A program made the position numbers and the translations under genes. Shown here one piece after another: positions 419 to 64,000 of a stretch of 64,000 nucleotides of DNA. Location: NCBI GenBank assembly GCA_963693365.1, contig CAVNZM010000016.1, forward strand, positions 219,341-283,340, written 5' to 3'. Under the pieces are notes generated by a model, which was not told the origin of the DNA, made no database searches, and worked only from the letters and a program-made list of their open reading frames with translations. This DNA comes from Amoebidium appalachense. Taxonomy: Eukaryota; Protista; Ichthyosporea. Within the stretch, counting starts at the first letter, position 1. Each line of letters starts with the position of its first letter.

Positions 419-5039
<4,621 letters not shown>

Positions 5040-9311: not shown

Positions 9312-10520
9312 CTAAGCACCACAGTTCTCTCCGCTTTGCAAGGGCTGGAGAGGGGAGCAAGGGAGCAAGGGGAGGGAGGGGGACGGGGGGAGGAGCGGGG
9401 AGGGGAGGGAGGGAGAGTGATGGAGACGGATGGGAATGATACAAACAGGGGGGGGGGGGGGGGAGGTGGGTTTTTGGGGGAGGGAGGTCGCAAAAAAAGG
9501 GGGATAGGGGGGCGGGCGGGGCGGGGCGGAGGGGGGGGGGGGGGGGGGGGGAGGGGGGGTTTTGAATGCGTCAAAAAGTACGAAGTACACAAGAACAAAC
9601 GGATAACACGATGCAGAATGCAAGCCATACATAAAGAGTATGCATAATAAGCAGAGCCCATCCTCAGGGGGGGCCCACGTCATCCACAGTACCCGAGTTT
9701 CGACCTATTCCCCTCGTTAACGAAACCCAACTCAGATACTGTTTCACTTGAACATGAGTAGGTCACCCGTCTTGATCAGAGACGAGCAGGGGGGGGGGGG
9801 GGGAGGGGGGAGGGGCGGGTGTTGAGTTAAGGGGATGGTAGGGGGAAGGGTGGGCGGTGGTGGGGAGGTAATGGTGGGAGGATTGGAGCACGGGAGGGGA
9901 AAAGGGAGCTAAGGGGAGATGAGGAGGGGATTGGGTAGAGAAGGGGGGGGGGGGGGGGGAGGAAGGGGGGAAAGCACGCGCTTTGGGGGGGGGGGGGGGG
10001 GGGGGAAGGGGCGGGGGGAGCTGGTTGTATGAAGGGAACACATACCGTTGCCGGTGCACACCTAACCCTGAGTGTATCCTCCCTCCTCTGGCCCTGTATG
10101 GGCCCCATTGTGGGGGGGTTTATTGGGGGGGTCCTATCCTCCTCCACGGCCATGGATATAAAATCCTGCCCTACCTCGGGGTGGAGGTGGGTGTCTAGTG
10201 CTAGAACAGTGCTTTGGAGCTGCCGGGGGGGGGGGGGAGGGGAAGAGGTGGGGGAGGGAGGGGGGGGGGGGGGGGGGGGAGGGGGTTAAAATGTGCTAAA
10301 AAGTATGAAGAACAGGGGTGTGAACGACAACACAATGCAGGTTTTGTAAAGAAAATGCAAAGTGTATGCAGGATGTGTCATAAGTAGAGCCCATCCTCGG
10401 AAAGGAAAAGGGGGAAGGGGCGGGGGGCGGGGGGAGGGGGGAGGGAAGGGTTGATTGCGTGTTGAGATACGAGAGAGCGACTGGGGGTGAAAATGTGTGT
10501 GTGGATCATGATGTGTGTAT

Positions 10521-10551
<31 letters not shown>

Positions 10552-13123
10552 GGAGGGTTTGAGTTGTGTGTGTGTGGGGGGGGGGGGGGGGGGGGGGGTT
10601 GGTGGAGATGTTAGAAAGAGAGAGGGTAGAAAGTGCAAGTTGACAACACACAGATATGCAACACACGACACAGTGTGATGGAGGTATGTAGCACAAGTTC
10701 TGTGTATGCTCTGCCTGTGTGTATATGTATGTGCCTGTGTGTGTGTGTGTCTGCCTAGTCGTCTCTTTGTGTGCTTGCGTCTACTTGAGTCCTTCTCTGT
10801 GCCTCTCTGTGTCTCCTTGTTTGTCTGTTTCTCTGCCTATCTGCTTGTGTGTCTCTTTCTGTGTCTCTAACTTGATTGTCTGCCTGTTTCTGTCTCCCTG
10901 TGTGTGCGTGTGTGTGCCTGCCTGTCCCTCTCCCTCTGTGTGTGTCAGAGTATCTGCCCGTCTCTCTGTGTGCTATGTGCATATGGGGGGGTATTGTCAC
11001 AGCACCCACCTCTCTAGCACACCGCATGGAGCTAAACTGCATCAGAATGCCTCCAAACGGCTGCTCCTCAATGTTCAGCTCTGCAGCATAGAGAAATTAG
11101 ATTATTGCAGATCGCACAAGATCATCTCTGATCGAATAAGACCAACTCGGACCAACTCAGATTGAGCAAAATTAGAGCTCAGATCATGTATTAACACATC
11201 AACCCAACCCAAATTGAATCAGATCGGATCAGATCGTGCTCACATCGAACAACATCGGCTCAAATCAACTAAGATATAGCAAGATCGGACAGTTAGCAGA
11301 TGGCCAAATTAAAACTTCTGACACGTGTGAACCACCACCCATGTCCTCACACAGATACAAGCAAGGGAATACTCCTGCACTATTGCTCGCTATCATAATG
11401 CATCGGGGGAGGGGTGGGGTAGGGGGGGGGGGGGGGGGGGGGAGAACACAAGCATGGCAAAGTAGGAAAGGCGACAATCAAAAGAAACCTGGCAGAATTG
11501 AATCGGAACAACGAGGAGAATTCGGGGGGGACGGGGGGGACGGGGGGGAAGGGGGGGTGGCCCGGGTTGCTCGAGTTACCTTCGGTAGGTTTCTGTGGCT
11601 GTGGTTGTTGTGTGAGGGCTGGCGTGGTGGGGGCGGTAGGAATGGGTCGCTGGGTGGTTGGCGGGGTGGGTGGGGGGGCTGGTTTAGTGGTGGCTGGCTG
11701 GGTGGTGGTGGGTGTGGGGGTCGGCCTGAAAATAGAAAGTAGGTTTGTTAGTGTTTGGAAGAGGAGGAGTGGGGTGTGTGAAGGGGGGGGGGAAGGGGGG
11801 GGGGGGGGGGGGGGGGGGAGCTTGAGAGGTGACTTGTTTCTTATACACCACATCTGGCCACATAGTGATAACGCTCAGAGGATTCCATTTTGGTCAATCC
11901 GCTCAAGCCGTTTTTGAGAAGAGGGCCACAGAAATCGGATTTAGCGCAGAGTTATGGCTTGCACAAAGCGGCATCTGCGTATGCTATATAATATATATTT
12001 CTTGCACAACAACAGCCAAACAAAACCGCAAAAACATAAAAAAAGTGGTTTGCATTCAATTATGTAAAAATAACTTGGTTATTGGATGTTTGTTTTCTCC
12101 CTCTGAATGCGATGGCGGTGCAGCTTCAAGGTAAGATTTATTGCCACACTCTTGCTTAAACGAATCAGATGGAGCTGGCTCACGGGTTTGATCGATAGAT
12201 TGGGCCTTGTTGGGAATCGGATTATTTTAGGTTATATCTCTTGATTGGGCCCGCAATTCCCTCTCGAAGGATTGAAGCTATTTGATTGGGCCCGCAATTC
12301 CCTCCCCCCAAAAGTTGTTATCACTAGTTGGCCCTATGTAGCAGAGAGCCTAAATGTGTTGAGGCTCATTCTCCCCTGTCAGCATTGAGTGTAAACCCCC
12401 GCTGCAAGCCACGTGTATGCGTTATAAGCAGAGCCCATCCTCAGGGAGGGAACAAGGGGGAGGGGGGAGGGGGCGGGGGGGGGGGGGGGGGGGGGGGTGG
12501 TTACACACGTTGTACTCCGTGCCACGGCCATGTCCACTTTTGCCTTCTTAGCCACATGTTCCACTTTCGCCTTCTCCGCCGCTCTAGCAGCTTCCCTCTC
12601 GTTCCTCTCTATCTCCCTTGCCACGAGCTCATGATAAGATCTATGCGCCATCTTACACGAGGACCCACTAGGGCAGGTGTGGTTGCAATAGAAGGACGGA
12701 CAGTCCTTGCCCGCGTGGAAGTGGGGGCAGGTCGTGTTTGATTGGCTGCAGGTCTTGGTGGCCTGCCACGTGGGGCATTGCGGGTTGGGGGGTACCGTGA
12801 GCTTGGTGGCTGTATGTGTGTGTTTGGGGGGGGGGGGGGGGGGGGGGGGGGGGAGGGGAAGGGGGAATGGGGGGAGGGGGGGAGGGGGAAAGGGCGGGTG
12901 GGTGGTGGTGGGGGGAGAAGGTGTGGGTGGTGGGTAAGTGTGTGGGCGTGGGGTGGCGGGAGGATGGGTGGATGGGGGGAGGGGGGGGGGGGGGGGGAGG
13001 GGGGGAAAGGGGGGGGGAAGGGGGAAGGGTGGGCAAAAGGGGAAGGTGTTAGAATGTGTTACAGAGTACAAGAACCATAATCAAGAACGGATACCACAAT
13101 GCATACTCCGTAAGCATCATACG

Positions 13124-13692: not shown

Positions 13693-15096
13693 ACACACAT
13701 ACACACACAATCACCGACACACACGCTCTCTCTCTCTCTCTTTCTCTTCTCCCTCCCCTCCACCCACCCACCCACCCACCCACCCACCCACCCACCCACC
13801 CACCCACCCACCCACCCACCCACCCACCCACCCACCCACCCACCCACCCACCCACCCACCCACACACCCACCAACTCCCCCTCCCTCCCCCCTCCCTCCC
13901 CCCTCCCCCCGCCCCCCCCCCACCCACGCACACACCTATCTTCACTGCCTTTGACGCTGCCAAAGGTGCCCCGACCGATTGCACCCCACGTTGAACAGTG
14001 GCCGGGAGGGGGGCCGGAGGGGGCGGTGGTGGTGGTGGTGGTGGGAAGGCGACGATGGGTGGGGCGTAGAGGGTCGGGGGGAGCCATGGTATATGCGGAC
14101 CTGTAAAGGAGGGGGGGGGGGGGGGGGGGGGGGGGAGAGAGGGGGGGGGGTGAGAGGGGGGGGTGGAGGGGGTGGGGGGAGGGGTGAGAGAGGGGGGAAA
14201 GGGGAAGGGGGGAGGGTTAGAAACTGTCATAGAGTACGAAGCTCATTTTCCTAACGTGCAGAGTGCAAACCACACAGAGAGTATGTGCATAATAGGCAGA
14301 ACCCATCTTCAGGGGGGACACAAGTCATACACAGTTACCATGTAAGGACCCATTCATTGCGTCAGACGAAACCCAACTCAAATACTGCTTGACTTCGACA
14401 TAGATGGGTCGGGGGGGGGGGGGGGGGGGGGGTAGGATGTGTATAGTCTAATACAAAAATGTGGGGAAGTTGAGTGAAATAAAATCAAAATTAAAAAATT
14501 TAAAGGTTGACATAAGGTGGTAAAACCTTGTTGTGGGGAATATGTGTGTGTGTGGGGGGTTATAGTGCTTTTAGAGGAAATCAAAGAGAGCAACACAACA
14601 GAAATGGTAAGAAGGTGAGTATACGAACCAAGAAAGCACCATTAGGAGACTGTGAAGGGCGTGGCGGGGGAAGGGGGGGAAGGGGGGGGGGGGGGGGGGG
14701 AGGTTCCGAAAAACGAGGAGTCAAAAGCACAGCCCTGTGTGTGTGTGTACATACATTATTCGGCCTCAGCGGGTGGGCGGGGGGAGGGAAGGGGGGGGGG
14801 GGGGGAGGGAGGGGGGTTCTTACTGCATGGGGGGATCCACAGGGGGGGGAATGAATGGGATTGGGGGCTGCTGTGGTTGATGGGGGGGGAGGGCTGGCTG
14901 GAGGCCAAATGTGGTGGGTGGGGGGGCAGAGTTGGCGGCCATAAGAACTGGGTCATAGCCATCCCTGTTTGGGGGGGGGGGGGGGGGTGGGGGGGTGGGA
15001 GGGGAAGGGGAGAGGAAGAAGGGGAAGCGGGGGAGTTGGGGGAGGAGGGGGGAAGACGAGGGGGAGGAAGAGGGGGAACGGGAAGAATGTGTGTGT

Positions 15097-15144
<48 letters not shown>

Positions 15145-17862
15145 GGGGTCCTTAGATGTGTTACACGGAGAAAGTAGATAATCATGACAGGCAAGACCAA
15201 TGCAGATGCCAATGCAGAAGGGGGAATACATCAAAGGAGGGGGAGGGGGGGGGGGGGGGGGGGGGATTAGGATGTGGTAAAGAGTGTGAAGTGCCGTGTC
15301 ATGATGGATAACATAACACATGTTGCGAAAAACAACAGAGAATGCATCATAAGAAGGGGAAGGGGGGTGGGGGGGGGGAGGAAGCGGGGTTGGGGGGAGG
15401 GGGGGGGGTGTGTTAGCTAATTTCACCTGTGCATAATTGCTACTATCAAGTGCGGGTGCAAGGAAAATATGGCGTGTGAAAGCAAATAACGTGTGTTCTT
15501 AAGAGGAACACACGTATAAATGCCGGAGATTTGCTTCTGTGTGTGTTGGAGAAGGGGAGAAGAGGGGGGGAGGGGGGGAAGGGGGGGGGGGGGGGGGGGG
15601 GTCATTGAGGTACAAAGCATGCTAGCTATGAGTGAAAGCAAAAACCCCAGAGTTCACTTCAACAATCTGACCCCCCCCCAGGACTCGTGCGCACTCACCT
15701 GAGTGGGTCGTATCCCTGCTGGGCAGGAGTAAGGGGTCTCTCCGTGTAAACCCCCTGAGGCTGAAAATTCATTTCATGTTGCCAAAATTGGTCCTGTGGC
15801 GGTGGGCCACCCCAGTCCTGCTGTGGAGGCGGCTGGAAATTTTGCTGGGGCTCATTTCCGTAAAACCCCCACTCGTTCCCCCCCTGGTAGTACTCGACTG
15901 GCCCATTGAAACCCCCCTGAGGGGGGGCTTGGGGTGGTGCGGCGTTGAAATTTTGAAAATGGGACCCAGGTCGGTCTGTACGTAATATAGGGTGAGGTGT
16001 GAGGGGTCAGAGGACGCCTGAAAAAGCTATAAATTGTGAGGAAATGGGACCGGCCGGAGGCTGGGGGGGGGGGGGGGGGGGGGGATTATCCCCACTGTGC
16101 GTGTCGTGGGTGGTTGATGCACGTGCAAAGGGGCTGGGTAGTGAGTGTGGGGGGCTGGGGGGGGGGGGGTTGGAGTGGGTGAGAGGGAAGGGGAAGGGGG
16201 GGGGGGGGGGGGGGGTTGCATTGACACTTTCATCCCTCGTCAGGTTTTAGCACCCAAAAAATAAAAGCAAACCGAGATATATCCTGGAAATAGACCCCAT
16301 ATTGGCTGAGAGAAAGCAAAAAGGAGCAGTGGAAAGGGGGGGGGGGGGGGGGGGGGGGGGGGGGTGAGTGTGTGGGGGAGGGGAGAAGGGGTTTGAAAGG
16401 GGGGGGGGGGGGGGGAGGGAGGACGGGGGGGAGGGGTTGGAGGTCTGGGATAGGATGAGTTTCAGAAAGAGTGAAATTTGAAGGCGAAACTGCATCCGTT
16501 CATGCCCACTGAAAAGTGTGTCCTTTACCGTCAAGCAACGAATTCCGGCAGGGGGGGGGGGCTCAATACCGTCTATGAGGGGGTCATTGGGGTCACGTGC
16601 GTAACTGGCAGGGTGCTTGTACTTGCACCTCACCCCGTGGGTCACATAATAGTCGCACGTGCCCCGATTATTCCAGCGGTAGCATATGTCCTTGGTGTCT
16701 CCAACCTGGGGGGGGGGGGGGGGGGGGGTGGACAACGGGGAGGGGAGGAGGGGGGGGGGGGGGGGGGGGGATGTATGCGTTAAGGTTGGAAATATGGAGG
16801 AGACAACAACGAGCATCAACAAAACGTCACAAAAGTGGGAAATCCAAAATCAAACAATTTAAGCGTGCAGGCAGGAGACACCTGAACAGAGCCCATCATC
16901 AGGGAGGTTCCTATGCCTCCACAAAAGCATGGGTTTCGACTCTTTAACCTCTCGCGTGTGGTTCCCAGCCCATACTTTGTTTCAACAGCAGTAGGCGAGT
17001 CCACCCGTCTTGGCCAAAGACGAGCAGGGTTGTTCAAGGAGCAGCCGGGAAGATTGACAGGGCAGGGGAGGGAGGGGGGGAGGGGGGAGAGGGGGGGGGG
17101 AGGGGGGGGGGGGGGATAAGATAACCATTCGACATAAGACCTAACGCAGGGGGGGGGGGGGGGGGGGAGAAGGGAAGGGCAGGAGGGGGGAAGGGTAGGG
17201 GGGGGAGAAGGGGGGGGAGGGGGGAAGAATGGGGAGGGGGGGGGGGGGGGATACCATACCATTCAAGGAAGATTATGGGGGTGAGCAAAGCAGTTTAAAA
17301 ATGTTAAAGATGGTGAAGGGACCGCCATAGCCATATCAGACATTGCAATGTATAAGTGAGCAGAGTGAGAAAATCGAGTGGGTAGGCCCAATGGCCGTAA
17401 GTATGAACATGGGGAGGGGAATGGTAGCAAGGGACTGACCTAAAGTGAGCTCGATATAAAAAGAGACGGACCGTTTGAATGACGAGGGCAGGTGGTTGGA
17501 GCATATGCGCGCAAGGCCGAGAGAGTGGTTGGGGAGGGGGGAGGTGCTTTGGACAAAAAATAGACAAAGGGAATTTAGGGGGCAGGTTGGGGGAGGGGGG
17601 GGGGGAGGGGTGCAAAGAGAAGTGATGAGCGAGCGGCGGAGTGGGGGGAGGGGGGAGGGGGGGGGGGGGGGGGGGGGGGAGGCCTTCGGAAGGTGGAAGG
17701 TGTAGGGGGCGGTGTGGGTCGCATGAGGGCAGAGGGAGGGAGAGGGGGGGGGGGGGGGGGGGGGAGAAGGGGGGGGGAGGGAGAGCAGAGAGCTGTCCAC
17801 TGTGGCAAGCGGTAAGTGTAAGGGTGTGTCAGGGAAAAGATTGTGCGGGGGAGGGCACCGGA

Positions 17863-20511: not shown

Positions 20512-23500
20512 ATGACAAAAGTCTTTTTGCACATAACGATCCCTGCGATGGGTTCGACCGTAAAACGGGGGGGCTGGGGAGCCCTTCCTGGAAGGTTGAG
20601 CTCGATTCTCATCCAGAAATACCTTAGGCTTACCCTGTTTATTCTGCTAGGTGTCGGCATTTTCTTGCATCTTTTCGCTCCATCCTCACCACTGGTTATA
20701 CCCAACGAAAATGAGACATACGAAAACCCAACCCCACGTCCAGTAAAACCACCAACACCCATCCCCCTCTCCACCAAATTTAAAACCACAACCGCTACCA
20801 GAAAAATCACAACCACAAACACAACCACAAAACACATACAAACCCGAACCAAAACGTATCAAGTACATCTACTACCGTGCAATAGGTAACGACCTTCCAC
20901 CAAGACACGCACTCGGTCAAACACTCACCAACGTTCAGTACATGTTGGACAACGAACCAGTCTTTCCAGAGATGGAAAAGAGATGGCTGGTGAACAGAAT
21001 AGTAGACCCCGAGCAGGAGAGGAAAGTTATTGCACTGCTGGAGAGCAGGAAGCAGATTTACCTCCATGTTCCAATCAACATCACCGAGTATGCCAAGAGA
21101 AACATTCGTTACGAGGGCTTCGGTGTGGCTGATATCCTACGTAGCGATGTTTACCACAACGCCACCGACCAACGAAAGGTGGAAATAGTCGATGCTATGC
21201 TCCACGACAAGAATCTTTATGTTATGCACAACAACGGCGCACGCAACATGATGCTTGAGGATGGCATAAAAGCAGGGGCAGAGTGGATCCTTCCCTTTGA
21301 CGGCAACTGTTTCATGACCAGAACGGCATGGGAGGAGATTAAATCTGCGCTTGAGCGCAAGGGTTCCGAGTCGAAGTACTTTGTGACGCCCATGGCACGG
21401 TTGCAGTCTAACGACCAGCTGTCAGAGCCTGGTTTCAGGCCTGAGGCTACAGAGGAGCCGCAGATCATCTTCCGGTGAGTGATGTTTGACGTTGTGTTCT
21501 GCTGTTCATTTTTCGTGTACACCATGCTGTGTGTTGCACTCGGTTACTTCTGTGGGCTTCGGTCTGTTCTCCTTGCACCTGTCTCTCTGAACAAGTCTGT
21601 TCTTAGCTGCCAAGCACAACATCGCTCTCCCTCCCCCCCCCCTCCCCCCCCCCCTCCCCCCCCCCCCCCCCCCCCCCCTGCCCTGCTCCCTCCTCCTTCA
21701 CCCCCCCCCTCTGCCCCCTCTCCCTTCCCCTCCCCTCCCCACGTTTTCATTACGCTAGCCCTTGTGAATCTGTACTTCACATTCATTACCACACCTTTAA
21801 ATTCTTTATCCCCACCACTATCACATTCTGGGGTTCGGCTTGCTCGTCCTTTTCACCCATAGGCTTTGCTGAAGCCCACTAACACGCTGAGCACGAGCCC
21901 CTCCCTGCACCCAACATGCTGCCTTTGCCTCTCTTTCTATCCCCGCTCTCCAAGACTCGCCTTTCTCTCACACACACCCATGTCACACGCACGCAATCTC
22001 TATTCTCTCTTCCCCCTCCTCCCCTCCTGCCCTTCCCAACCCACACCACTCGTCGACCCCTTCTTTTCTCCATTTGCTTATACTCCCTCCCCCCTCTCCC
22101 CCCTCCCCCCCCCTCCCCCCTCCCCCTTTACTCCATGCAACCGGGCATGGTTGCTCTGTGTCGTGCATCTGTAAGCACATACGCATTTTTTCGCTGCACT
22201 GCATTAGTTTGCACACACACCATCTTCGCCGTTTTGCTCACCTTGCTTGCATAAGCAACCCTGCTCGTCTTTGATCAAGACGGGTTGACCCGCCCAAGTT
22301 CAGTTGATGCTGTTGTCTGCGTTGGAGCGTCGTATATACGCGGGCTAAGGGGTCGAAACTCAGACGCAATTGATGACTTGGGTCCTCCGTGAGGATGGGC
22401 TCTGCTTATGACGCATACTGTGCACATGACTGATGTTGCATACTTGATTGTTTGCCTTTGCATGTGTCCTGCACCATGCTTCTCGTCATGTATGCGTACT
22501 TCGTACCATGTTCCGCATTCAAACCCCCCCCCCCCCCCCCCTCCCACACACACACACGCACACATACACACACAGCCACGACGCCAAGGAGCGCTTCAGT
22601 CCCAACATGCGCTACGGCCGCCGGCCCAAAGTCGAACTCCTCTGGCGATTGGCTGTGCCGGGGCCATGGGAGAAATGGCCGCAATCTATTGGACCGTGGG
22701 AGAAGAAGGAATGGACTATTTCTGACGACGTTCCCTTAGGAGGCGTCCCCACGGCGGGGTGGATCCCTCGTCTTTATTCCGGACAGGGGGCGCTGGAAAA
22801 GGCGGGGACGATCGTGAACAGGGGTATTAGTCGGTCTCAGGGGGTAGAGAGTATATTGTCGCGGTTGGATGTTCGTGTCGCCGAGGAAATGTACGGGTTT
22901 AAGGCGGGAAATTTGCTCGCTTGGAACGAGTCTGTGCTCCAGCGCGAACGGGACGCATACCGCGCCAAGTCCCACCCCGATCTGGTAAATCTGGTGAATC
23001 GCAAGATGCTCAAGTGCGCCGATGCCGCCCTCAAATTTGGTCCGTTTTCCGTCACGCACAAGAAGAATCTTCCCCCTAGCGACGACCCCCATGACTACTA
23101 CACGCCTTCCCCTTACTTTTGGCCCGACCCGAAAAACCCGAAAGCACCCTACAAGCGCCACGATGGGAAACGTGTCCCCGGGACGCTTCTTTACGACGAA
23201 CAGAGCGAAAATTATGACCGCAGCCGGCTGGCTTCCTTATTTGGTAATACCACGTGTTTGGCCCTGGGGTGGTATTTCACGGAAAGGAACGAATACGCCG
23301 TTCACGCCGCGGAGAATATTCGCACGTGGTTTTTGCGTAACGAGACGAGAATGAATCCTCACATGCGCTATGCGCAAATTCGGTGGGGTCACGATAACAA
23401 CGTCGGCGCAAATTACGGTATTATTGAAACCAAGGATTTGTACTTTCTTCTCGACGCGGTAAGGTTGGTAGAACGGTCGGGTGCGCTTTCTCCCGATGAA

Positions 23501-34828: not shown

Positions 34829-34853
<25 letters not shown>

Positions 34854-35045
34854 TGTTGTGTTGGTTGCGATGGCGGAAGGAGAGAGGGGCTGGGTGGGTG
34901 GGTTGGTAGGTGGGTGTGTGGATTGGGGAGGGGGCAGGGGCGTTAGAATGCTATAGAGTAAGACGTACACACTCATAATATCACAATGCAGAGTGCAAAC
35001 CACAGATACGAGAGTACGCATGATAAGCAGTGCCCATCCCCGGGG
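34829..35045 (-). repeat. Near-identical inverted copy of the 3' end of COMMD3 intron 4 (53343-53582), including the element tail
   Basis: Reverse complement matches CCCGGGGATGGGCACTGCTTATCATGC...GCATTCTAACGCCCC...CGCAACCAACACAA(CA)nG with only a couple of substitutions outside the CA tract. Confidence 0.9.
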
Positions 35046-41147: not shown

Positions 41148-41206
<59 letters not shown>

Positions 41207-42247
41207 GCCTTTATGTTCGGAAGTTGCTTTCTTTCCTAACCTTCATACCATCTGATTGGTCGCATGTTCCTTTAAAATTTAAAATTTTAACCCAAGCTCA
41301 CCCCCCTTAGCCCCAGCCACCCCCTGCACGTGGCACCCATGGACCACGTGGTCTCTCTGCAGTGTCACCTGCGGCAGCGGCTCCACCACCCGCACCCGCA
41401 CACAAACCCCACCCGTGGGAGGCGGAGCGCCGTGTTCCGGCCCGGAAATGGAAGTTCTACCGTGTTCCAAGCCCTCTTGCACGGAGGATAACAGTGTGTG
41501 TGTGTGGAGTGAATGGGTTAATGCCACGTGCAGTGTCACGTGCGGGCAGGGCACAGCCACACAGACACGCAGGCAGATGGGTGGGCCCACGTGCATACGC
41601 ACAACATCGCAGGTGGTCCCTTGCGACATGGGTCCGTGTGGTGAGTTTTCTCCCGTTTTCTGTAAATATATCATATCTCGGCACTTACTCACAATGTATC
41701 TTTTCTTTACATACCATTCTTTGTAAGTGCAATTGCTCACACAGAACTTTGAAAAGCACACAATCGGCGCTAGTCGGGCATTTGTTTGTTTTTTTTAGCT
41801 TCAAAATTACCTCGAGTGTATAAAGGACACCCCCCCTCGGAGTCCCCCCATCCTCCCCACCCTCCCCCCATCCTCCCCCCCCCCTTCCCCCCCCCCCCGG
41901 CTCATCCTCTCTCCCCATCACCCACCACCCCCCGCCTCCCTTCTGCTTCTCCGCCTACTGCCGTTAACACCTCAACCATCTAACCTTATCTGCCCCCCCT
42001 TCCCCCCCCCCCCCCCCCCCCCCCCCCCCTCAATCCCACCCACCCACCCACTCACCCCCACCCCCTCCTCCCCCTTTTCCTCCCCCAATTTCATCATTTC
42101 CCCCCTCCTCCTGAGTCCTCCCCCCCTCCAAAAAAAAAAAAAAAAAAAGAAAGAAACAAAGACAAACCGCTAAGCCCCCATCCCCTTCCCCCCCCCCCCC
42201 CCTCCCCCCCCCCCCCCACCCCCCCCCCCCCCCCCCCCCCCCCCCCA

Positions 42248-42290
<43 letters not shown>

Positions 42291-45200
42291 AAAAAAAACA
42301 CAGCCGCCAACTGCAGCATCACATGGAGTGAGTGGGGGCCATGTGCCTTAGTGCCGTGTGGTGGTTCGTTTGGCGCCATCACAGCCAACAGTACAAGGAC
42401 ACGCACAGGCAGTGTGACTGTGCCTGCACAAAACAGGGGAGAATGCGTAGACGCGAAAGAGGTGGAAAAGTGTACGGTCACTGTGCAATGCGGTGGGTGA
42501 ATAGGTTAATGTTTGCACACATCTAGTGTATATTAAGTATATAATAGTGTATATTAAGTAATACAATAGCGTATACAATATACAGTAGTTAAAATTTTCT
42601 CGTGCATATTAACAATGCAATCACTTAGCACTCGGCAAGTTTTTCTGGCACATCGGCCCACAAGTGATAGTAGCCAGCATAGCCAATGTATAACAGCACA
42701 ACTAGACCGAGTTTAAGCAAACCAACCCCCCCCCCCCCCCCCCCACCACCACCACCATCACCTCCTCCCCCCCCTCCCCCCTCCCCCTTTTCCTCCCTTC
42801 CTCCCTGCCTCCCTTCCCCTTCTTCGCCTTGACCTTCTCTCATTCTCAGCCTTTGCACGTGAATGTGTCCTCTTTATTCAGAATCTATTCCAAGCCCTAT
42901 AGTAGTATTACTATGATTTAACGTTTTTGCAAGTTTTCATTTACTAAACATTTTGCTACTTTACCGAAAATCCATTTCAGAACCAAACTGCACCGTTACC
43001 TGGACGGAGTGGACAGCCTGTGGCCCGCTTGAGTGCACCCCCACCAACCATGGCCCAACCACAAAGACAGGCACGCAGAGTAGAAGCGCAACGCCAATGG
43101 ATGTGGAAAGATACTCGGTGGAGATGTGTGGGCCCTTGGGGGATGAAAAACCATGCAACGTGACACTGCAATGCGGTAGGTGCTTATGTGCATGTGGTGT
43201 GGTGAATGCATCTTTAGCATGTACGTCACACGCGGTGGATCTATTCCCCATAATTCTAACAGCAACTCGCACTGTGTATCGGAAATTCGGGTTGTGTGGT
43301 CTATCTAATTTGGGTAGATATGTACCGAACGAGATAGATAGGCAGGAAAACGTATCAACTATCCTCGGACTCAAAGTTTTCGGACACCATCATCTCCCAG
43401 CGTACTATTTGCAGTTGTAATTCTCGCTCAGCTATCCTCTCGCGGCGTGCAGGCATTCTGATGGTTATTCTCCCCCCCCCCCCCCCCCCCCCCCCCCCTC
43501 CCCCCCTCCCTTCCCCCACCCTCTCTCCCCCCCCCCCCCCCTCCCCACACACACACACACACACTTACACACACACACACACTCACTCACACTCACACCC
43601 TCGCGTGCGCACGCACACACACACGCACACACACACGCACACACACTTCCCACCCCAAAGACCACTTTGAGGGGTAGGTAATGAGCAGGCAAGGCTTTAA
43701 ACCCTAATAAGGAGCTTTACATGCTGACTGACTGACTTAACTGCTTCAAATTTATGACACCATACCGTGATATCCTATCAGCCTGAGGGATGCTCCCTCT
43801 ATAGTATATATCTTGTAATCGACGTACACTAACTTTCCCTCTATAGTATATATCTTGTAATCGACGTACACTAACTCTCCCTCTATAGTATATATCTTGT
43901 AATCGACGTACACTAACTCTCCCTCTATAGTATAGATCTTTTAATCAACGTACACTAACTCTCCCCCTTCCTCCATCCCCAGCCATAGACTGTGTCGGTA
44001 CGTGGGCCTCCTGGTCCCTCTGTTCCACCCGGCCATGCACCTCTTCAGACCGAGGCAACACCACAGCCACAGGCACACGCACACGCACATACACAGTCAC
44101 ACAGCCAGCGTCCAATGGCGGTGCAGCATGCCCCAACAGCCAATCGGAGGACTGCTCAGACAAAATCATGTGCCGTGAGTTGCCCCCCCCCCCCTCCCCC
44201 CCTCCCCCTCCCCCCCCCCCCCCCTTTCCCCCAAACCACACACACACTCACTCACACACACTCACACTCACACACACACAACCACCCACCCACTCCTCCC
44301 CCCCCCCCCCCCCCCCCCCCCGCCCCATTCCACACAAACAGATACAACAATCTCTAATTTTACCACTACTGTACAAGGTGGGAGTAGGAGTGCAAGCCTT
44401 CATGACCTCATGTATATGCATTAAATAGTAAATGTTTGGATCATACCTGCTATACAGTTATAACGCCCTTTATATACCTTGTTAGGAACTCCCCCGTCTT
44501 CGTAACCTTAATTTGCATTTAAGTCTACAGCAATACATCATAACTCTAACTTCTTCCTCCATCCCCAGCCATAGACTGTGTCGGTACGTGGGCCTCCTGG
44601 TCCCTCTGTTCCACCCGGCCATGCACCTCTTCAGACCGAGGCAACACCACAGCCACAGGCACACGCACACGCACATACACAGTCACACAGCCAGCCGCAA
44701 ATGGCGGTGCAGCATGCCCCAACAGCCAATCGGAGGACTGCTCAGACACAATCATGTGCCGTGAGTTGCCCCCCCCCCCACCCTCCCCCCTCCCTCCGCC
44801 TCCCCCCCCCCCCCCCCCCCCCCCACCCCAACACACACACACACACACACACACATTCTCACAACCCCGCGCCTACAGAGAATTGGATCTGCTTTCAAGA
44901 ATCCTCCACTTAAATATGGGCCCTTCTCCCCCTCTTCCCCCCTCCCCCCCCCCCCCCTCCCCCCCCTCCCCCCCCTCCCCCCCCATAGCACGCAACACAC
45001 ACACACATCCTGAATCCACAGCGCCAATCCGTTTTCGCTCCCAAAAACCATTGAGGCACCCACCGGTTAGTATTGTGTTGACCGGAGATCGGTTAGTATT
45101 GTGTTGCAAATTTTTAAACACGGCTGGCCACAAAAGACAAAACAAAAACGAAACAAAACCTAAAGGTTGCATATGCCTGTGTGAAAAAAGACAAACACAC

Positions 45201-51219: not shown

Positions 51220-52238
51220 AAAAAAAAAAGGGCCAACCCGTGCGGCTGTCCACGTAAGTTGTGTACTTAAGTTTTTTTTTTTTTTTGCATACATGCCTTA
51301 CGTCACCCAGTGCGAGTTTGTACTTCATTGTCTACCACACACTAACAAAAACAACAACAACCCCCCCCCCCCCCCGCGCACCAAAAAAACAAAACAAAAA
51401 AAAACAGAAAAAGCCCAGATCCCCCCCCCCCCTCCCCCCCCCCCCCCCCAAAAAAAAAAAAAAATGAAAAAAATAAATAAACAAAAACCCCAAACAGACA
51501 GCAGCTTTCACTGCGAGGGCACCAATGGGCCACCGACCTGACCCGCATTCTTTCTGCCCACAAGCCAGCGCTCATTTCCTGTGCCACCCACCCCCCAGCC
51601 ATACCAATGCTCACTGATGTGTCTTGGTCACTCGACTACACAGTTAGGGTGTGTCCTCCCCCCCCCCCCCCCCCCCCCCCCTACCCCCCCCCCCCCCCCC
51701 TCTTTTCTGGCTTCTGCTCACTGCTGCAACTTTAACGCCCGCCTTTTCCCACTGCCCTTGCCTGTTGCCTGCTCGCATAAGTAACCCTGCTCGTCTCTGA
51801 TCAAGATATGTGACCCAGCTATGTGTAAGTGAAACAGTATCCGAGTTAGGTTTGGTTGATGAGGTGAACGGGTCGAAACTCGGGTACTGTGGGTGACTTA
51901 GGCCCTCCCTGAGGATGGGCTATGCATGCTCTCTATGGGTGCTTTGCATTCTGCACGTTTTGTCCGTTGTTTTTATGTGCACTTTGTACTTGTTAGCGCA
52001 TTTCCCCCCCCCCCCCCCCCCCCCCCCCCCGTTGATATCGAGTTATGTGCGTATTTGCCTCATTTGACTATGGGCTTTGCATATTGTGCACATTTGTTAT
52101 TTTTTCCGGATCTTCATTACATGGCTCGTCTTGAAACTGCCATATGATAGATCAATCGTTATCTTTTTCAAAACGAAATTTTGAACAACCCTAATGAAAA
52201 GTGACGATTTCAGTAGAGTCGTATCTTGTGTCCCCCCC

Positions 52239-52934: not shown

Positions 52935-53529
52935 ACCCCCCATTTCTCCCTGCCCCCAGCCCCAACAGCAACAGACACACACACACTCTCTTCCGTTCTC
53001 TTTCCCATTCACACGAAGTTCATGAACCATGGTCTTTTACCTGCCTCACCACGACCCCCCCCCCCCCCCCCCCCCCCCCCCTCCCCCCCCCTTCGGGTTG
53101 AGGCAAAGAATGTGTTGCAAACCAACCGAGGCATGTTTAGAATTCCATACCCACCTTTTTGTTACGGCATAGGAAACATGATCATGAGCTCTGTTCATTT
53201 GTCTTTTGCCCGAAAATTGTTTGGGTCCCTTCTCTCTCGCCCCCGTTTAGGATATCAATTGATGTGTTTACTTCCATGCTTGACACCCTCGAAAGCCAAC
53301 ATCCCCCCCCTCCCCCCTCCCCTCCCCCCCCCCCTTCCCCTCCCCGGGGATGGGCACTGCTTATCATGCATACTCTCGTATCTGTGGTTTGCACTCTGCA
53401 TTGTGATATTATGAGTGTGTACGTCTTACTCTATTGCATTCTAACGCCCCTGCCCCCTCCCCAATCCACACACCCACCTACCAACCCACCCACCCAGCCC
53501 CTCTCTCCTTCCGCCATCGCAACCAACAC

Positions 53530-53583
<54 letters not shown>

Positions 53584-56062: not shown

Positions 56063-57779
56063 CTTGACGTTTCCAAAGGCTTTCAATCTATTCTTCACAT
56101 ACACCCATGCCAATCCGCTTTTCGTAAAAACAATTCATGTTATGTTCAAATAATGGCACTGCACGATTCTATGCAAGTTGGTGCACAATATGTTGGCTTT
56201 ATTGATTGGAAAACTGCTTACGATTCTGTCTCCCCTGGTCTCCTATGGGAAAAGCTTGCTGCACGGGGTGTACCACACTGCATTGGTGTTCTGTTAGAAG
56301 CACTCTTGTCTCAAACCTATGGTAGAGCTGTGGTTAATGGGCATCTTTCATATGGTTTTGCTCGTACTAGAGGTCTCTTGCAGGGTTCATTGCTTAGCCC
56401 CTTTTTGTTTAACCTATTTATAGATGATTTGGCTGTCAAGATTTACGCCGAAAACGATGACCCTATTAATAACTTTCCGCCTGCACTTCTCTATGCTGAT
56501 GATCTGTCCCTCCTTGCCCGTACCCCTAGACGCCTGCAAAGATTGTTCGATGTAGTGTCAGAGTGGTGCAAGGCAAACCTTATGATCCTTAACATAGACA
56601 AATGTGGTGTTCTTGTACCTGATATAGCTAACAATTTACACACATTTACATTATCATCTAAACCTGTACCTATAGTTCCAGAATACAAATATCTTGGTGT
56701 TCCGGTTGATTCTGTTGGTGTTATGTTTCCCCATATGGTCGAAAAGAGGGTAGAGTTGGCTCGTAAGCGGTTAGCTTTCTTCTCGGCTAATATTTTTAAA
56801 GACACACCCCTCCATCCTTCTATTAGACTTACATTTATTCGCACTTTTGTCTTCCCGGCATGTGAATATGGTTTACCCCTTCTCGCCGCTTGGATCAAGA
56901 AAGAGAGAACTAGAGCGCTTAAACCCTTGGCAAATTTCCTTGAAGCAGAAGTTGCCTCCTTTCTATCTAACAACTGTTGTAAACCTGGGCCTGTAACGCT
57001 CTCGATATATGGTCTGGTCCCAATAGCTGCTAGAGTATCCTATCTCGCGCTGAAATTCAATAAGCACATAAGCCGCTTAAAGAAGTATTTGCCCTCCCAC
57101 CCTCTCTTCTCTATCCGACCTGTCCCCTCCTCACCTCTCCCCTCTTTCCTCCCCTCTCTCTCCCCTTCTCCCCTGGGCACAAATACAAATAAACCCCGCA
57201 ATAGTGTGTGTGTGACTTTGGACTGCCACTTACTTATTAAACATGTACACAATCACAAGATAATCACGCAATATAACAAATGGAAAAAGATACCACACGA
57301 CACTAGACCCGATGAAAGCATACACCTTGAAAAACTAAGCCTTATGTCTCGTTTTATATATACTGACCGCCTCAACCATATTGCCAAATATGGCACTCGC
57401 AAGTGTATAACACCTAAATACATATTACCTTCCTGTAGAACTGGTCTTTCTCTAGCTGATGGTATTATTGATCAATTACCACGCTTTTACTGTACACGTG
57501 CTATACAGTGGAGATCTAATAAGTATAAGGTGGCATCATTTGCATGCCCAAACAACACACACACACACCAGTTTAACCGGTCATGTATCGCCAAATGTAG
57601 TTTGATAGACCACATAATACCGCAACACACACACGTCACATTCACAACAGACACCCAGAAAGATAGCCTACCTGTAAATTACAACATCCTTGATTTTATA
57701 CTAAACACGCGTAACTACGACCTGTTTATTAGATGTATTGATTGGCTTGAGAAACACATCACTACAAAATTATAGCGCA

Positions 57780-57852
<73 letters not shown>

Positions 57853-57884
57853 CCAGCTGATACCGAGTGTCCCGAGGGGAGCCC

Positions 57885-57933: not shown

Positions 57934-58240
57934 GGGGAACCCCAACTAATTGATTTCTCCTTGTAGTCTTTATGGTGTCTCGTAGAGAAAGTAAACCCTG
58001 ATATATAGTCACCACCCGACATCTATGTACGTGATCATGATATACCGCTGAGGGGATATTCCGAGCAAACCCCCCCCCCCCATACCTGAGACTGGTTCTC
58101 TTTGCCTCGAGTAAACAGCGTAAACCCCCAAAGGCTTTCCGGTTGGCAAGCTTTGTTCGCCGCAGTTTTGTCACTTTTACGTTCTTACCTTCTCGGATTA
58201 TCCGAAGTGCCCCCCTTCCCTGTGCGTGTCTGTAACCACC

Positions 58241-59639
58241 ATGCTCTCCTCTCTGTCTCTCTGCCTGCGTGGAGCACGCACGTGCGTGCCTGCAACTGCG
58301 GCAACGGCTGTGAAGGCGGGCAGCATCCGTTGGATGTCTATAGGTGCGTGAGTGTGCAGATGAGGTTCGTGTGGTTGTGTGGTTGTGTGCGTGTGTGTGC
58401 ACGTATGCAACTTCGCGCGCGTGTGTGCTTGTGTGTGTGCATGTGTGTGTGTGTGCGCGTGTCTACGTGTGCGTGTGTGCGTATGTGTGTGCGCGTGTGT
58501 GCGCGTGTGTGTGCGTGTGCGCCACGGTGTGCCTGCGCACGTAGCGTTTTTTTGGTGTCTGGAAGTCGGTTGGATGATATCATTATGGTTCGTTGTGTGT
58601 GGTTGCGTGTGCGTTTCAGGAGGGTAGGGCCCTTTTCGGAGATGTTTTTTCCAGGCACAACGGGTCATCTCAGATTTACCTACCTTTTGCAAAACACATG
58701 CCTAGCGTACTCCATCCAGCAACCAAGCAGGGTGGAGTGAGTGTGTTGTGCGTGCGTGCATGTGTGTATTTTGCATCTCTGTGCGTATTTATGGTCATCT
58801 CTCTGTGTTTTGTGTGCATCTGAGACGTTCAATATTGGAGTGCTTGCACATGCTGGCATATGGTGCGTGTGTAGGTGGCAGATTATTCTTAACCTGCCGT
58901 CCAGGTGCCGAGGGCTACACACACTACAAGTCTCTGGTTGCCTCTGTTCCTTCTCCCAATGTACTTCACGTCGAACTGAACCGCCCGGACAAGGCAAACT
59001 GCATCAATGACGAGTACGTGTGTGTGTGCGTGCGTGTGCGTGTGGTGTGTGTGTGTGTGTGTATGTGTGTGTTTGCGCGCGCGTGCGTGTGTTTAGATGG
59101 GTGTGGGGCCAGATCTGGGGGCGAGGTTGTGTGAATGTTGGTGGGCGTGTGCACGTGCGCACAACCGTGCACCCGTGCGTGTGTATGTGTGTGTGTGTGT
59201 TTGTGTGTTATGTGGCTGTCTGGCGGGATGGCTGGGTTTGTGGGGTGGATGTAGATGTGCATGTTTGCTTTGGGCGGGCAAAGCTCATTCATGGATTCCC
59301 GCCTATTTCCCCTGTGTCTGTGGTTTGGAATGGCTAATGTAGAAGACCCAACCTTGGGTTATGCAGTGGATGGATAGAGATGTTGTTGGGGCGTGGTGGG
59401 CCCACATAGGGGGTTGCTTGCGCCGTGGTGATGAGGTGTGGGAAACTGTCAAAGGGGACTTGGGTGGCGGCTGGCGGTGGTGGTGGTGGTGGTGGTGGTG
59501 GTGGGGGGGGGGGGGGGGGGGGGGGAAGGGGGAGGGGGGGGGGGGGGGGGGGGAGGGGGGGGGGGGGGGTGGTCAAGAAGAATGGAGTGAGAGGAGAGTG
59601 GAAGTCCACATGGATTCTGAGTTTTTTTTTTTTTTTTGT

Positions 59640-59670
<31 letters not shown>

Positions 59671-60240
59671 GGGAGATGTTTTAGCTAGCCCTTTTATTTT
59701 ATTCGTTCATTTTTTTTTGGGGGGGGGGGGGTGGGGGGGGGGGAATGGGTTGGGGGGTTTTCCTTTTTATTTCTTTATTATGATAGCCATTCTTAAATTT
59801 TTGGGGGGGGGGGGAGGGGGAGGGGGGGGGGGGAGGGGGGAGGGATGCTTTGGTGAGCGCATAGTGACCGGTGCTCCTCCCCCTCCCCCCTCCCCGCCTC
59901 TCTACCCCCCCCCTTCCCCCCTCCCCCCCCCCCCCCACCCCCCCCAGGCTGTGGGCCGAGCTTCGTGACGTGTTCCGGCAGGCAGCAGCAGACAGCCACG
60001 TGCGCTGTGTGGTTCTTTCTGGAAGGGGGAAAAACTTCTGCGCCGGCATAGACCGTATGTCTTTATCCCCCCCCCCCTCCGCCCCCCCTCCCCCCTCCCC
60101 TCCCCCCCACCTTGCCCATCCCCCGGGGGTACCGGAAATGGCTCGTGTTCTCTGAGGATAGACCCTACTTCCCTGTGCGCATACGTGCACTGCATTATTC
60201 GATGCACCTTGTGCTTCATACTGCATACACATTGCTGCCC

Positions 60241-60273
<33 letters not shown>

Positions 60274-60662
60274 ACACACACAAAAATAAAATCACTTCTT
60301 TGGGCGGTTATCGTTTTCTTGCATTCGGTAACTTGTTCGGGGGGGATGCCTCTTCTCTCGCCCGCCTGCCCCTCTCCTCTCTATCTTTGATTGCATTTTT
60401 TTCTATCCTTTTTTTTTAATGTTTCCCTTACCCATTGATTACAGTGTTTGCACTGACTCTCTGCACCAACGGCGCAAGGCAGGTCTTTAGGATACGATTG
60501 ATGAACCGTTTTACCCTTGAACGTCTTTTCTGTGTGAAGCAAACGATCTATTCAATAGCCGGAAAATCATACGACTGCACAAGGCCGATTGGTGCAGTAG
60601 GTCGGTGCAAGCACTGTAGTTACCCCTCCTTCCCCACCTCGTCAGATCCTCCGCACCTCCCC

Positions 60663-60755
<93 letters not shown>

Positions 60756-61392
60756 ACACCCACATGCATGCACATATTACGCAAGGACACACCGCCACAC
60801 ACGCATACATTTACACACATGCGCACACCCATCCACCATCCATCCACCCGTACACACACACACATCCACTCACTCACTCGGTCATTCACACACACGCCTG
60901 CCCACCCACCCACTCACCTCTCTCATCCGCCCCCCCACTCCTCCCCTCCCCTCCCCCCCCCCCCCCCCCGCCCTCCTTCCCTCCCCCATCTTCCCCCCTC
61001 AACCCCGTTTCGCTCCCCCTCCCCCCCCCCCCCCCCCCCCCCACTTCTAGTGCAGCTCTTTATGGGGATGAATTCCAAGATGACCAGCAAGGACCCTGCC
61101 CGTATCGCCTACAAACTCAAAGGCATCATCAAGGTAACAAATGCCCCCCCTCCCCCCCACTCCCCCTTCCCCCCCCCCCCCCCCCCCCCCCCTTTTGCTC
61201 TGCCTATGTTGCATACTCGTGCTCTTTATGTTCTTACCGCTATGTTGTCCATCATGAGTGTGTATTTCTTACTCGTGTGACACATCCCCCCCCTCCTGTT
61301 GGAGTACACTCCCCCCCCCCCCCCCCCCCTCCCCCCCCCCCTCCCCCCCCCTCTCCCCCCCCCCCCCCCTCCCCCCCCCCCCCCCCCCCCCT

Positions 61393-61429
<37 letters not shown>

Positions 61430-62025
61430 GCAGACACACACAAACACACACACACACACACCTCCTGGCCCAACTCACACGACACCCGTCCTCCTCCCCC
61501 CTTCTCCCAGAGGCTCGAAGGTGATTTAGCTATTTAACCAGTCCACCCACTGCACCTATAAATAGAACTACCAGGAGGGATTCAATGCCATCGAGCTATT
61601 TATAGCCCACCCACTAACAAATGAACCTATAAATAGAACTACCAGGATTCGAGCTATTTATAGCTTACAAATGTACCTATAAATAGAACTACCAGGATTC
61701 GAGCTATTTATGGCGCACCCACTAACAAATGTACCTATAAATAGAACTACCAGGAGGGCTTCAACGCCATTGATCTATTTATAGAACACCCACTAATCAA
61801 ATATACCTATAAATAGAACTACCAGGAGGGCTTCAATGCCATTGAGCAGTGCCCCAAACCGGTCATCGCCGCCATCCACAGATTTTGTGTTGGTGCAGGT
61901 AACTAGCCACCTCCCCCCCCCCCTCCCCCTCCCCCTTCCCCCCCTGCATCATAAGTTTTCTTTTGTACTGTAAACAGGATTCTAGGCTCCCTCCTCAAAC
62001 TAGCCGCCCCCCTCTCCCCCCCCCC

Positions 62026-62056
<31 letters not shown>

Positions 62057-63093
62057 ACTTCCTGCTGGGCTCCTTCCTGCTACGTAGCGTCCAACATGAG
62101 GTGCCTGCAAATGTCCTGTTTTTGCTTTTTTTTTGTTGACACGGGGGGTGGGGGGGGGGGGGGGGGTGGGGAGGAGTTACTGGTAGTGGGAGGCAAGGCG
62201 TGGTGGGTGGAGGAGAAGAAGACGACAAAGGGTAGTGTGTATTGGGAGGAGGGGGTGGGGTGTTGGGGGGGGGGAGAGAGATGGGGGGGCTGTTGCTGTG
62301 ACTGATGTTTGTTTTGTAGGTGTGGACATGGTTACTGCCTGCGACATTCGAATCTGCAGCAAAGACAGCAAGTTCAGCGTGAAGGTGCGTGCACGTGCAT
62401 GCACACACACAGCCACGTGCATGCACACACACAGCCACGTGCATGCACACACACAGCCACGTGCATGCACACACACAGCCACGTGCATGCACACACACAG
62501 CCATGTGCATGCACACACACAGCCACGTGTACAAGCACGGGCACACCATAGACACACTGACGTACACACCTGACGATACATCCCCCCCCCCCACCTCCCC
62601 ACCTCTCTGAAAGCCCCTTCTCCTCACCCATCTATGAAAGCCCCTTCTCCCCACCCATCTATCAGAATATATAGTCACGCTATCGACGATCTGATTGCCC
62701 CACAAGAGCCCCCCCCCCCCCCCCCCACCCCCACCCCACCCCCTCAAAAAAAAAAAAAAAAAGAAAAAAAAAAAAAAAAAGGGAAAAAAGAGAAAAACCC
62801 TGCCCCCTTTTGCCCAGTTCTCTCTGCCTAAGAACTAACTGCCACTTGCATGGCGGACATGCACATGGGCTGCTACTGTCTGCCCATGCAATAACCAAAA
62901 ACGGCAACTGTTCTTGCATTTTTATTGGGTCGATCTCATTGGTCCAATATCATGCAGGAGGTTGCACTGGGCATTGCTGCTGACGTGGGCACCCTAGCAA
63001 GACTGCCTCGTGTGGTTAGGTGGGACACTGCCCCCCCCCCCCCTCCCCCCTCCTCTTTCTGCTGGACACTCTGATCCCTCTCTCTCTCTCCCG

Positions 63094-63140
<47 letters not shown>

Positions 63141-63674: not shown

Positions 63675-64000
63675 GTGGGTGTTGATTAATTTTTTAAATT
63701 TAACGGTAAAATAGTTGTGTTATAATGAGTGAGCAGTGATATAAACAATAGCAATAGTAAGAGCAAGCAAACCAGTGGTAATGATAGTGATGATAATAGT
63801 GCTAGTGATCAAGTTTGTAGTAACAACAACCATAGAGTAGCTATATCACTGGGTGATCATAACCCTAATAATCAAACATCAAAAATCCACAACTACACAT
63901 ATAACAACTGGTATATTAGATGTCTACAACGATACATCACCCTCATATCTATTCATATAGTATATCTACAGCCACTCATATCTATTCATATAATATATCT

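Follow-up and report, generated by a model that had tools for sequence, protein, structure and literature searches.

The repeat family in the window

The present analysis concerns a dispersed repeat in a stretch of 64,000 nucleotides (nt) from the ichthyosporean Amoebidium appalachense (GenBank assembly GCA_963693365.1, contig CAVNZM010000016.1, positions 219,341 to 283,340 of the forward strand; below, the window) and above all its copy at 51703..52003 (+). An initial annotation, made from the sequence alone, had described the repeat as an intronic family with a hammerhead-ribozyme-like core. In our reading it is likely a non-autonomous Penelope-like retroelement (PLE) with a conserved domain of ~165 nt carrying the hammerhead core letters, and it is fairly probable, as judged from sequence comparison, that this domain folds into a split-core hammerhead that would cut 3' of a GUU triplet (51847 in the focal copy, 9729 in the best one).

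Five long copies lie where they had first been placed and on the same strands (profile E from 3e-45 down to 4e-70). That at 51.8 kb, the focal copy, is 5'-truncated and decayed, sits between poly-C runs and is the longest in the window; its start, formerly set at 51772, is instead ~51703, and other genomic copies, as seen in family contigs, extend further 5'. The 9.6 kb copy (9561..9791, -) is nearest to the family majority and has an intact core (U17 at 9729, G12 at 9701, C3 at 9667, G10.1 at 9764), having lost the outer strand of the helix called P0 below through 5' truncation. The 22 kb copy (22238..22523, +) represents a diverged subfamily with the full P0, a C3 to G change and a U.U third pair in the kink-turn, and the 16.8 kb copy (16771..17045, -), the most diverged, combines the full P0 and the kink-turn with another palindrome in hairpin H1 and a U16.1 to C change; the 14 kb copy (14217..14411, -) is decayed, truncated at the upstream stem II strand and devoid of GAAA.

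The family is large in public contigs, with 554 contigs of run X1 over the focal 401 nt and 1423 contigs of the same run over 150 nt of the 9.6 kb copy, such contig depth not being a copy number. In the contig comparison over these 150 nt the 9.6 kb copy equals the family majority except at 7 variable sites, and two contig records carry no other letters. The focal copy has private lesions, namely in the first pair of stem I, in the kink-turn adenine, at three positions of H1 and through a 9-nt deletion.

Hammerhead core and strand order

The core constituents that had been pointed out at first were all recovered. CUGANGA is found at 51909, 9667, 14312 and 16902 and as GUGAGGA at 22389, with N7 being G in three copies, A in one and U in one; CGAAAC is kept in 4 of the 5 copies, and so is GUU, which is replaced by GCU in the 16.8 kb copy. 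CUGANGA, GAAA, the NUH triplet and the pairs G10.1-C11.1 and A15.1-U16.1 are thus all represented, the copies at 9.6 and 51.8 kb keeping 13 of 13 core positions and the five copies together showing 5 departures in 65 cells. The blocks follow each other as UH triplet, GAAA and CUGANGA (S, G and C) with crossing stems, and not in the cyclic order C, G, S around a three-way junction that characterizes types I, II and III. While this order stands, its supposed novelty does not, as it has already been published as type SGC, which cleaves in vitro (Eckert et al. 2023, PMC10085705).

Between the 9.6 and 16.8 kb copies the core is identical at 12 of 13 positions and the remainder at 45 of 91 (binomial P 0.0015); core identity also exceeds the non-core level against the 22 kb copy (P 0.024), but not against the near or decayed copies at 51.8 kb (P 0.057) and 14 kb (P 0.54). 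A descriptor of the S-G-C order, tuned after the data had been seen (stem III of at least 5, stem I of at least 3 and stem II of at least 4 base pairs (bp), insert of up to 2 nt), retrieved only the 9.6 kb copy in the window and nothing in 1000 block-shuffled windows. From Rfam only a 14-bit partial Hammerhead_1 match was obtained (E 2.1, gathering threshold 34), no ribozyme being present among the 150 listed of 221 matches to the window. A hammerhead core in the S-G-C order is supported as more than chance.

Two other core readings were rejected: a second, mirrored core at an upstream GAAAC has G at position 17 and no CUGANGA, the site being the kink-turn described below, and a type I reading in tandem or circle finds no stem II adjoining this GAAAC. 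A dip in depth at the cut site in run X9, with the focal copy as reference, vanished with the 9.6 kb copy as reference and is an artefact, because the focal copy mismatches. One low-depth X9 contig (record 17) bridges the cut site, which says nothing on cleavage, because contigs cannot show ends and the RNA nature of X9, like that of X14, is a guess. Pattern scans for relatives gave at least 118 metagenome loci, from at least 120 matched stretches, and 17 viral loci, among which stem III exceeded 6 bp in none and no family member was recognized by profile (best E 0.07), and the H1 pattern had no match in viral and prokaryote genome collections.

The partner of stem II and the covarying helices

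The main departure from the initial annotation concerns stem II, for which the strand before GAAA had been paired with the strand after CUGANGA across a 2-nt insert. This helix of 4-6 bp shows no two-sided change; at 9.6 and 51.8 kb it amounts to only 4 bp, two of them G-U, and, if set in a 1-nt register, it contains a G.G mismatch in all five copies. The strand before GAAA pairs better with a segment 58-68 nt upstream (51812..51816, +, in the focal copy, with G10.1 at 51812 and U before it) by 5-7 Watson-Crick pairs in all five copies; in a hand-anchored alignment 25 of 25 cells of the first five pairs are Watson-Crick, and two columns show two-sided changes. Since ViennaRNA cannot score pseudoknots or kissing dimers, the two folds were compared by helix stacking only, which gave -9.1 to -13.9 kcal/mol for the upstream helix versus -2.2 to -10.1 for the downstream one. 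Probably the earlier stem II is wrong and the upstream strand is the true partner. Type SGC has its stem II strand 1-2 nt 3' of CUGANGA with block C uninterrupted, whereas here covariation favours the upstream strand (two two-sided columns against none), the downstream pairing being perhaps a second state. Because the stem II strand lies upstream and the strand after CUGANGA closes P0, the A9-G10.1 link would be opened into a four-way junction.

In the focal copy (all on the + strand) the P0 5' strand at 51776..51787 comprises an outer helix, degraded in its outer part, and CCC 51785-87, which pairs with GGG 51917-19; the stretch 51909..51922 holds the CUGAGGA core, U and the P0 3' strand, of which 9 nt are deleted. 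The outer helix is 8/8 paired in the 22 and 16.8 kb copies and 5/8 in the focal one, with three two-sided columns. Hairpin H1 (51790..51810) is located between P0 and G10.1 and abuts the latter; it has a self-complementary 6-nt loop (51798-51803) and a stem damaged by three changes at 51807-09. In 4 of 4 copies the letters of this loop are self-complementary, one of the copies having a two-sided change at the loop centre. Conservation is higher in H1 and the inner strands of P0 (23-24 of 26 positions) than in the arm (45-57 of 87-89).

Helix P5, whose 5' strand lies at 51818..51827, extends the upstream strand and finds its partner immediately 5' of the stem I strand, at the place of the type SGC interaction helix; like that helix it connects stems I and II at their outer ends; its partner strand is upstream, 80% of its cells are paired, and two-sided change is seen in 5 of 9 pairs. 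Between P5 and stem III a kink-turn is recognized, with the bulged strand at 51828..51833 (3-nt bulge, then G, A and A) and the non-bulged strand at 51891-93, the latter opening the stretch 51891..51908 that continues with the P5 3' strand (51894-902) and the stem I 5' strand (51903-08). It is present in the 9.6, 16.8 and 22 kb copies (3 of 5), the 14 kb copy being decayed and the focal one having a private change (G at 51893, family majority A). The G.A and A.G pairs are kept across three diverged subfamilies, the bulge and third pair vary, and the U.U third pair of the 22 kb copy is one that we take to be box C/D-like.

The stem III 5' strand and GUU occupy 51834..51847, with the predicted cut 3' of 51847, and 51870..51890 contains the stem II strand (51870-74), GAAA (51875-78) and the stem III 3' strand. 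The compensatory changes claimed for stem III are real, with 52 of 60 cells paired and two-sided change in 7 of 12 columns. With 13 bp in stem III, 5-7 bp in upstream stem II and 3-4 bp in stem I the fold has the stems of a hammerhead, stem I being weak. The stem I 3' strand (51848..51869) is formed by 51848-50 and 51863-65 around an inserted hairpin, followed by a 3-nt linker; the stem I pairing suggested earlier holds with 3 bp in most copies and fails in the focal copy, where the first pair is broken by A at 51848 (majority G). The 3' tail (51923..52003) ends at the family's common 3' end before poly-C.

For the whole fold, in a plain MAFFT alignment, two-sided change was counted in 16 of 51 pairs, while shuffled alignments gave 5.6 and slid controls 3-5; 0 of 500 shuffles were as high, although such counts are not probabilities, because these five copies had also served to derive the fold. 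Two-sided changes occur in the helices P0, II, P5 and III but not in the H1 helix. When the 22 kb copy was scanned as anchor without any assumed structure, 24 five-pair helices resulted, 10 of them rich in Watson-Crick pairs, which fall to P0 (3), H1 (4), upstream II (1), III (1) and one alternative; P0, H1 and the P5 arm also appear in the minimum free energy structure of that copy.

Naiad elements with the same predicted fold

Naiad and Chlamys PLEs were reported without a canonical hammerhead, under the labels 'HHR_core' and 'HHR_half_core' (Craig et al. 2021, PMC8557442), and ichthyosporeans have no mention in that paper. Its File S5 was compared by eye at all 81 occurrences of one 6-letter G-block motif and in passages for other motifs, some record names being assigned by table order without the header seen. 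The split fold was found in eight Naiad records, from a ctenophore, corals, a box jellyfish, an acanthocephalan and octopus, one being degenerate: seven of the 81 motif occurrences (ctenophore, three Acropora including the degenerate one, Naiad_Plae and two octopus) and, via another motif, the record that precedes Naiad_Plae (Naiad-2_Movir by table order). This makes at least 8 of 54 records, a floor because the motif search misses line-end breaks and other letters around GAAA.

The stem sequences of these folds are unrelated between lineages, while stem II has 6 bp with the upstream strand, P0 begins 0-1 nt after A9 and the hairpin abuts G10.1. Stem I has 4-6 bp and only 2 bp in the ctenophore; Naiad_Plae possesses P0 of 5, H1 of 8, II of 6, P5 of 10, III of 5 and I of 5 bp and no junction linker. 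In octopus a kink-turn of opposite polarity is found, and the other records have 3-7-nt bulges or an inserted domain. In the records of Plae, Morbakka, Acropora and octopus a downstream stem II cannot form.

As a separate observation, the nematode Naiad 3' ends in File S5 (PMC8557442) include seven occurrences in the C, S, G order with an interaction helix, the full pairing being checked by eye in two records; type CSG has been published from two metagenomic sequences only (PMC10085705).

Insertion pattern and probable retroelement affinity

The copies have a common 3' end and a variable 5' end, and the downstream 30-mer is at least 50% C in 12 of 13 listed segments versus 11% of random 30-mers. 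A shared 3' end, 5' truncation and a microsatellite target are features of Naiad/Chlamys-type PLEs, and the Chlamys clade, sister of Naiad, shows (C)n targeting with 5' truncation (Craig et al. 2021, PMC8557442). Neither an open reading frame (ORF) nor a pseudo-long terminal repeat (pLTR) of the repeat was found within the window. The Penelope connection proposed at the outset has indirect support, and to the Naiad clade rather than to minimal type I motifs. Several copy 3' ends (e.g. 14217, 53441, 10290, 13049) show a TAAC/TAACCC-like stretch followed by poly-C, which presumably resembles the C-strand of the TTAGGG telomere repeat, as in endonuclease-less PLEs.

The intronic position is borne out for the 22 kb copy, which lies in sense orientation within an intron of an alginate-lyase-domain gene whose transcript-derived protein (P0001) joins across the intron; it is likely for the minus-strand copies, which sit between candidate minus-strand exons, and no more than possible for the 51.8 kb copy. 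The sense bias of the copies may arise because C-runs lie on the coding strand of introns.

Comparison with known ribozymes

Type SGC, for which cleavage and stem rescue were shown, has been found only in metatranscriptomes (Eckert et al. 2023, PMC10085705). With HRIMA-1 and its variants the repeat shares the order S, G, CUGANGA, the crossing stems, a 3-nt linker between I and II and a helix joining the far ends of these stems, and natural SGC ribozymes share the same stem II sequences with U before G10.1. However, their stem II partner directly follows CUGANGA(U), whereas in the repeat it precedes S, A9 and G10.1 being connected by way of P0 and H1, and the repeat differs further in its kink-turn, the hairpin inserted in stem I and its eukaryotic genomic setting. 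The published SGC descriptor, which asks for a stem I of 4-7 bp, a linker of 0-8 and a distance of 0-15 nt from III to I, does not fit: by hand, the 9.6 kb copy has a stem I of 3 bp, a 19-nt linker and a distance of ~21 nt. Type CSG is alike in having the stem II partner and the interaction strand 5' of S and G, but its CUGANGA and stem I strand are also 5', those of the repeat being at the 3' end (PMC10085705).

Minimal type I motifs of PLEs and retrozymes resemble the repeat in the hammerhead near the 3' end, U after A9 and the proposed need for two copies, and differ in the canonical C-G-S order, the palindromic stem III dimer and tandem arrays (PMC4209133; bioRxiv 10.64898/2026.07.22.740005). 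Non-LTR retrozymes consist of tandem repeats with a type I hammerhead, whereas the copies here are dispersed, single and of non-type-I order. To Naiad and Chlamys PLEs the likeness extends over 5' truncation, microsatellite targets ((C)n in Chlamys) and the RNA architecture of eight Naiads (PMC8557442). A standard kink-turn separates two helices by a bulge of 3 nt and, next to it, the pairs G.A and A.G; the repeat shares these with Kt-7 and box C/D, its third pair in two subfamilies being A.G as in Kt-7; the difference is that its kink-turn is part of a ribozyme arm (PMC5061560).

In the literature searched, subscription papers aside, no hammerhead opened at A9-G10.1, no retroelement hammerhead with a kink-turn and no SGC-like motif in a eukaryotic genome was found described, 'type-SGC' occurs in one paper, and Perreault 2011, in the passages covered, lists only small core insertions; within this literature the wiring is undescribed, the S-G-C order itself being known. 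The six-permutation scheme with its three-block view assumes that the CUGANGA block C is uninterruptible by separating adjacent stems, and non-circular permutations come from metatranscriptomes, metagenomes and one doubtful bacterial case only (PMC10085705). If the split-core reading is true, a covarying family breaks this assumption and extends the ribozyme architecture, while escaping current descriptors and Rfam models; it would explain why Naiad elements seemed hammerhead-free, it would place non-circular hammerhead permutations in eukaryotic genomes, and the example outside animals would indicate either an old origin or an undescribed PLE lineage in ichthyosporeans.

Proposed mechanism

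Cutting by the split-core domain is likely. The core would assemble from four strands, namely the upstream stem II strand, S, G and CUGANGA, where G10.1 would be supplied by the upstream strand and A9 would be joined to it only through P0 and H1 in the four-way junction; the fold would then join the SGC/CSG/GCS class as its fourth circular permutation, with the opening placed within block C. Since stem II stacks on stem III (PMC10085705), the distance between their far ends is too great for the 9-bp P5 to span, and crude geometry leaves a gap of 37 Å for monomer fold-back in the repeat family and of 10-26 Å in Naiads. Either P5 would open or the loop of one copy would dock on the junction of another; one copy would be a stiff bent rod whose loop misses its own junction, and cutting would need two copies, provided by a tandem transcript or by a dimer begun at the H1 palindrome.

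Two-copy action is favoured because the H1 loop is self-complementary, with its central two-sided change, and cannot pair within one hairpin. Dimer action has been proposed for other PLE hammerheads, and the hint at it in the initial annotation may be right; for the Amoebidium repeat we treat it as a serious possibility while leaning slightly the other way. If cutting needs two copies, single intronic copies would be harmless and processing would be limited to tandem element RNA. In a Poseidon PLE internal initiation was described and hammerhead cleavage was not needed for insertion in vitro, and the fixed 3' end of the repeat downstream of an internal hammerhead resembles such internal initiation. 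A broader proposal, that the split-core wiring is the standard Naiad-type ribozyme from unicellular holozoans to molluscs, cutting only as a docked two-copy, kink-turn-shaped ring and thereby sparing thousands of sense-intron copies and processing tandem transcripts, is speculative and should be regarded as doubtful.

Evidence against the split core and rival explanations

A number of observations weigh against the split-core hammerhead or its dimer step. The covariation alignment consists of five homologous window copies only, which also underlies the limit on the shuffle counts; the full P0 and an intact core never occur in one window copy, stem I has 3 bp with a weak 3-bp extension Ib (60% paired), the folding ensembles at 22 and 16.8 kb do not favour stem III, and z-scores for folding reach only modest values (-0.12 to -1.78). 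At 16.8 kb the downstream stem II (6 bp, -10.1) equals the upstream one (-9.1) in strength. The variants at the paired positions 9760/9706 of upstream stem II agree in frequency in X1 (4.1% and 4.3%), in its support, and disagree in X9 (12.6% and 0.1%), these being frequencies only; a proposed pair is lost at 2 of the 7 variant sites, and 0 core variants among 7 sites in 150 would be met by chance about half the time. Among the copies in the window none is tandem, and no autonomous partner was seen there, the only reverse transcriptase found being R2/L1-like. The A9-G10.1 branch lies beside the active site and might block catalysis. In Naiads the H1 loop is palindromic in only one example, and with their smaller gaps and few palindromes the dimer step is not a general proof; they prefer (TA)n, unlike the poly-C repeat, and among the Chlamys occurrences and passages looked at by eye in File S5 none has the split fold.

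The fold might be real and the cutting lost, the domain serving as a scaffold for the reverse transcriptase of a partner, for Snu13/L7Ae-type proteins or for RNA protection. This would agree with copies that span the site, with the conservation of the H1 and P0 inner strands above the arm, with Poseidon PLE hammerhead mutants, which inserted unimpaired in vitro with no reads ending at the site, and with the weak cleavage of PLE motifs in vitro; yet the catalytic letters are above background between subfamilies and kept with NUH across distant Naiads, which binding alone would not need, and we regard the scaffold as unlikely. An ordinary type SGC switch, in which the downstream stem II is active after the 2-nt insert and P0, upstream II and P5 form an OFF fold released by truncation, protein binding or dimerisation, is in our estimate quite improbable. 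The downstream strand is nearly invariant and can pair in all five copies (4-6 bp; 6 bp in 16.8 and 22 kb), an alternative interaction helix is possible (9/9 at 9.6 kb), and there are known inserts of 1-2 nt (PMC10085705); nevertheless the downstream helix has no two-sided change and a C.A fifth pair in the majority sequence, three strong helices would have to melt, the published SGC descriptor failed on hand check, and the pairing cannot form in those Naiads (Plae, Morbakka, Acropora, octopus) that share the remaining fold.

PLE pLTRs gave rise to non-LTR retrozymes, of which many solo monomers remain in genomes, and the fold is a circular permutation of SGC/CSG; it could be argued that the repeat is a circular-RNA retrozyme whose split wiring marks the opening point of the circle and whose copies are cDNA primed at a fixed site. 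Still, the window contains no tandem unit, the loose ends of 30 nt that precede 51703 do not match the 3' tail, known retrozymes carry type I motifs, and the A9-G10.1 branch persists even in a circle, leaving little room for this explanation. That the motifs met by chance in a structured short interspersed element can hardly be maintained: the copies have one origin, the genome is C-rich and the descriptor was tuned post hoc, but the shuffled windows gave no hit, and the recurrence of the architecture in unrelated Naiad sequences, as cross-phylum covariation, largely refutes it.

Further copies and neighbouring genes

A profile of the five copies detected four further 3'-partial copies in the window (E <1e-5) and three weak fragments (E 0.002-0.04). 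Partial copies were found at 12404..12456 (-), which begins at the C-run ahead of CUGAGGA (E 1e-9), at 10290..10399 (-; E 2e-6) and at 53338..53441 (+), with a 97% duplicate at 34947-35046 (-), and weak 3'-end fragments at 13049..13112 (-; E 0.004) and 61197-61286 (+; E 0.04). A segment at 60152, formerly adduced in support, was matched neither by the profile nor by the covariance model; the stretch 60120-60240 (+) has CUGAGGA and a similar 3' end between poly-C runs and perhaps represents a distant subfamily. The duplicated partial copy with its flank belongs to an inverted duplication of 249 nt with 97% identity (34830-35077 and 53309-53557), and further direct duplications and short tandem repeats occur at 40435-41646, 43793-44863 and 61551-61827 (94%, 93% and 90% identity).

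The host gene of the 22 kb copy, at 20512-24112 (+), has two exons and an alginate-lyase domain, with ichthyosporean paralogues and otherwise bacterial relatives at ~40% identity, and its old horizontal transfer is possible. The exon 22562-24109 is identical to the transcript-derived protein; the next closest records include Sphaeroforma arctica proteins, and others that we take from their prefixes to be ichthyosporean. A non-LTR retrotransposon ORF with RVT_1, weakly like R2/LINE-1 proteins, lies at 56153-57775 (+) with poly-A near 57880, and no sequence link between it and the repeat was seen. By eye, 58240-63680 (+) reads like a multi-exon enoyl-CoA hydratase/isomerase gene, and 420-5040 contains the end of a phospholipase C-like gene.
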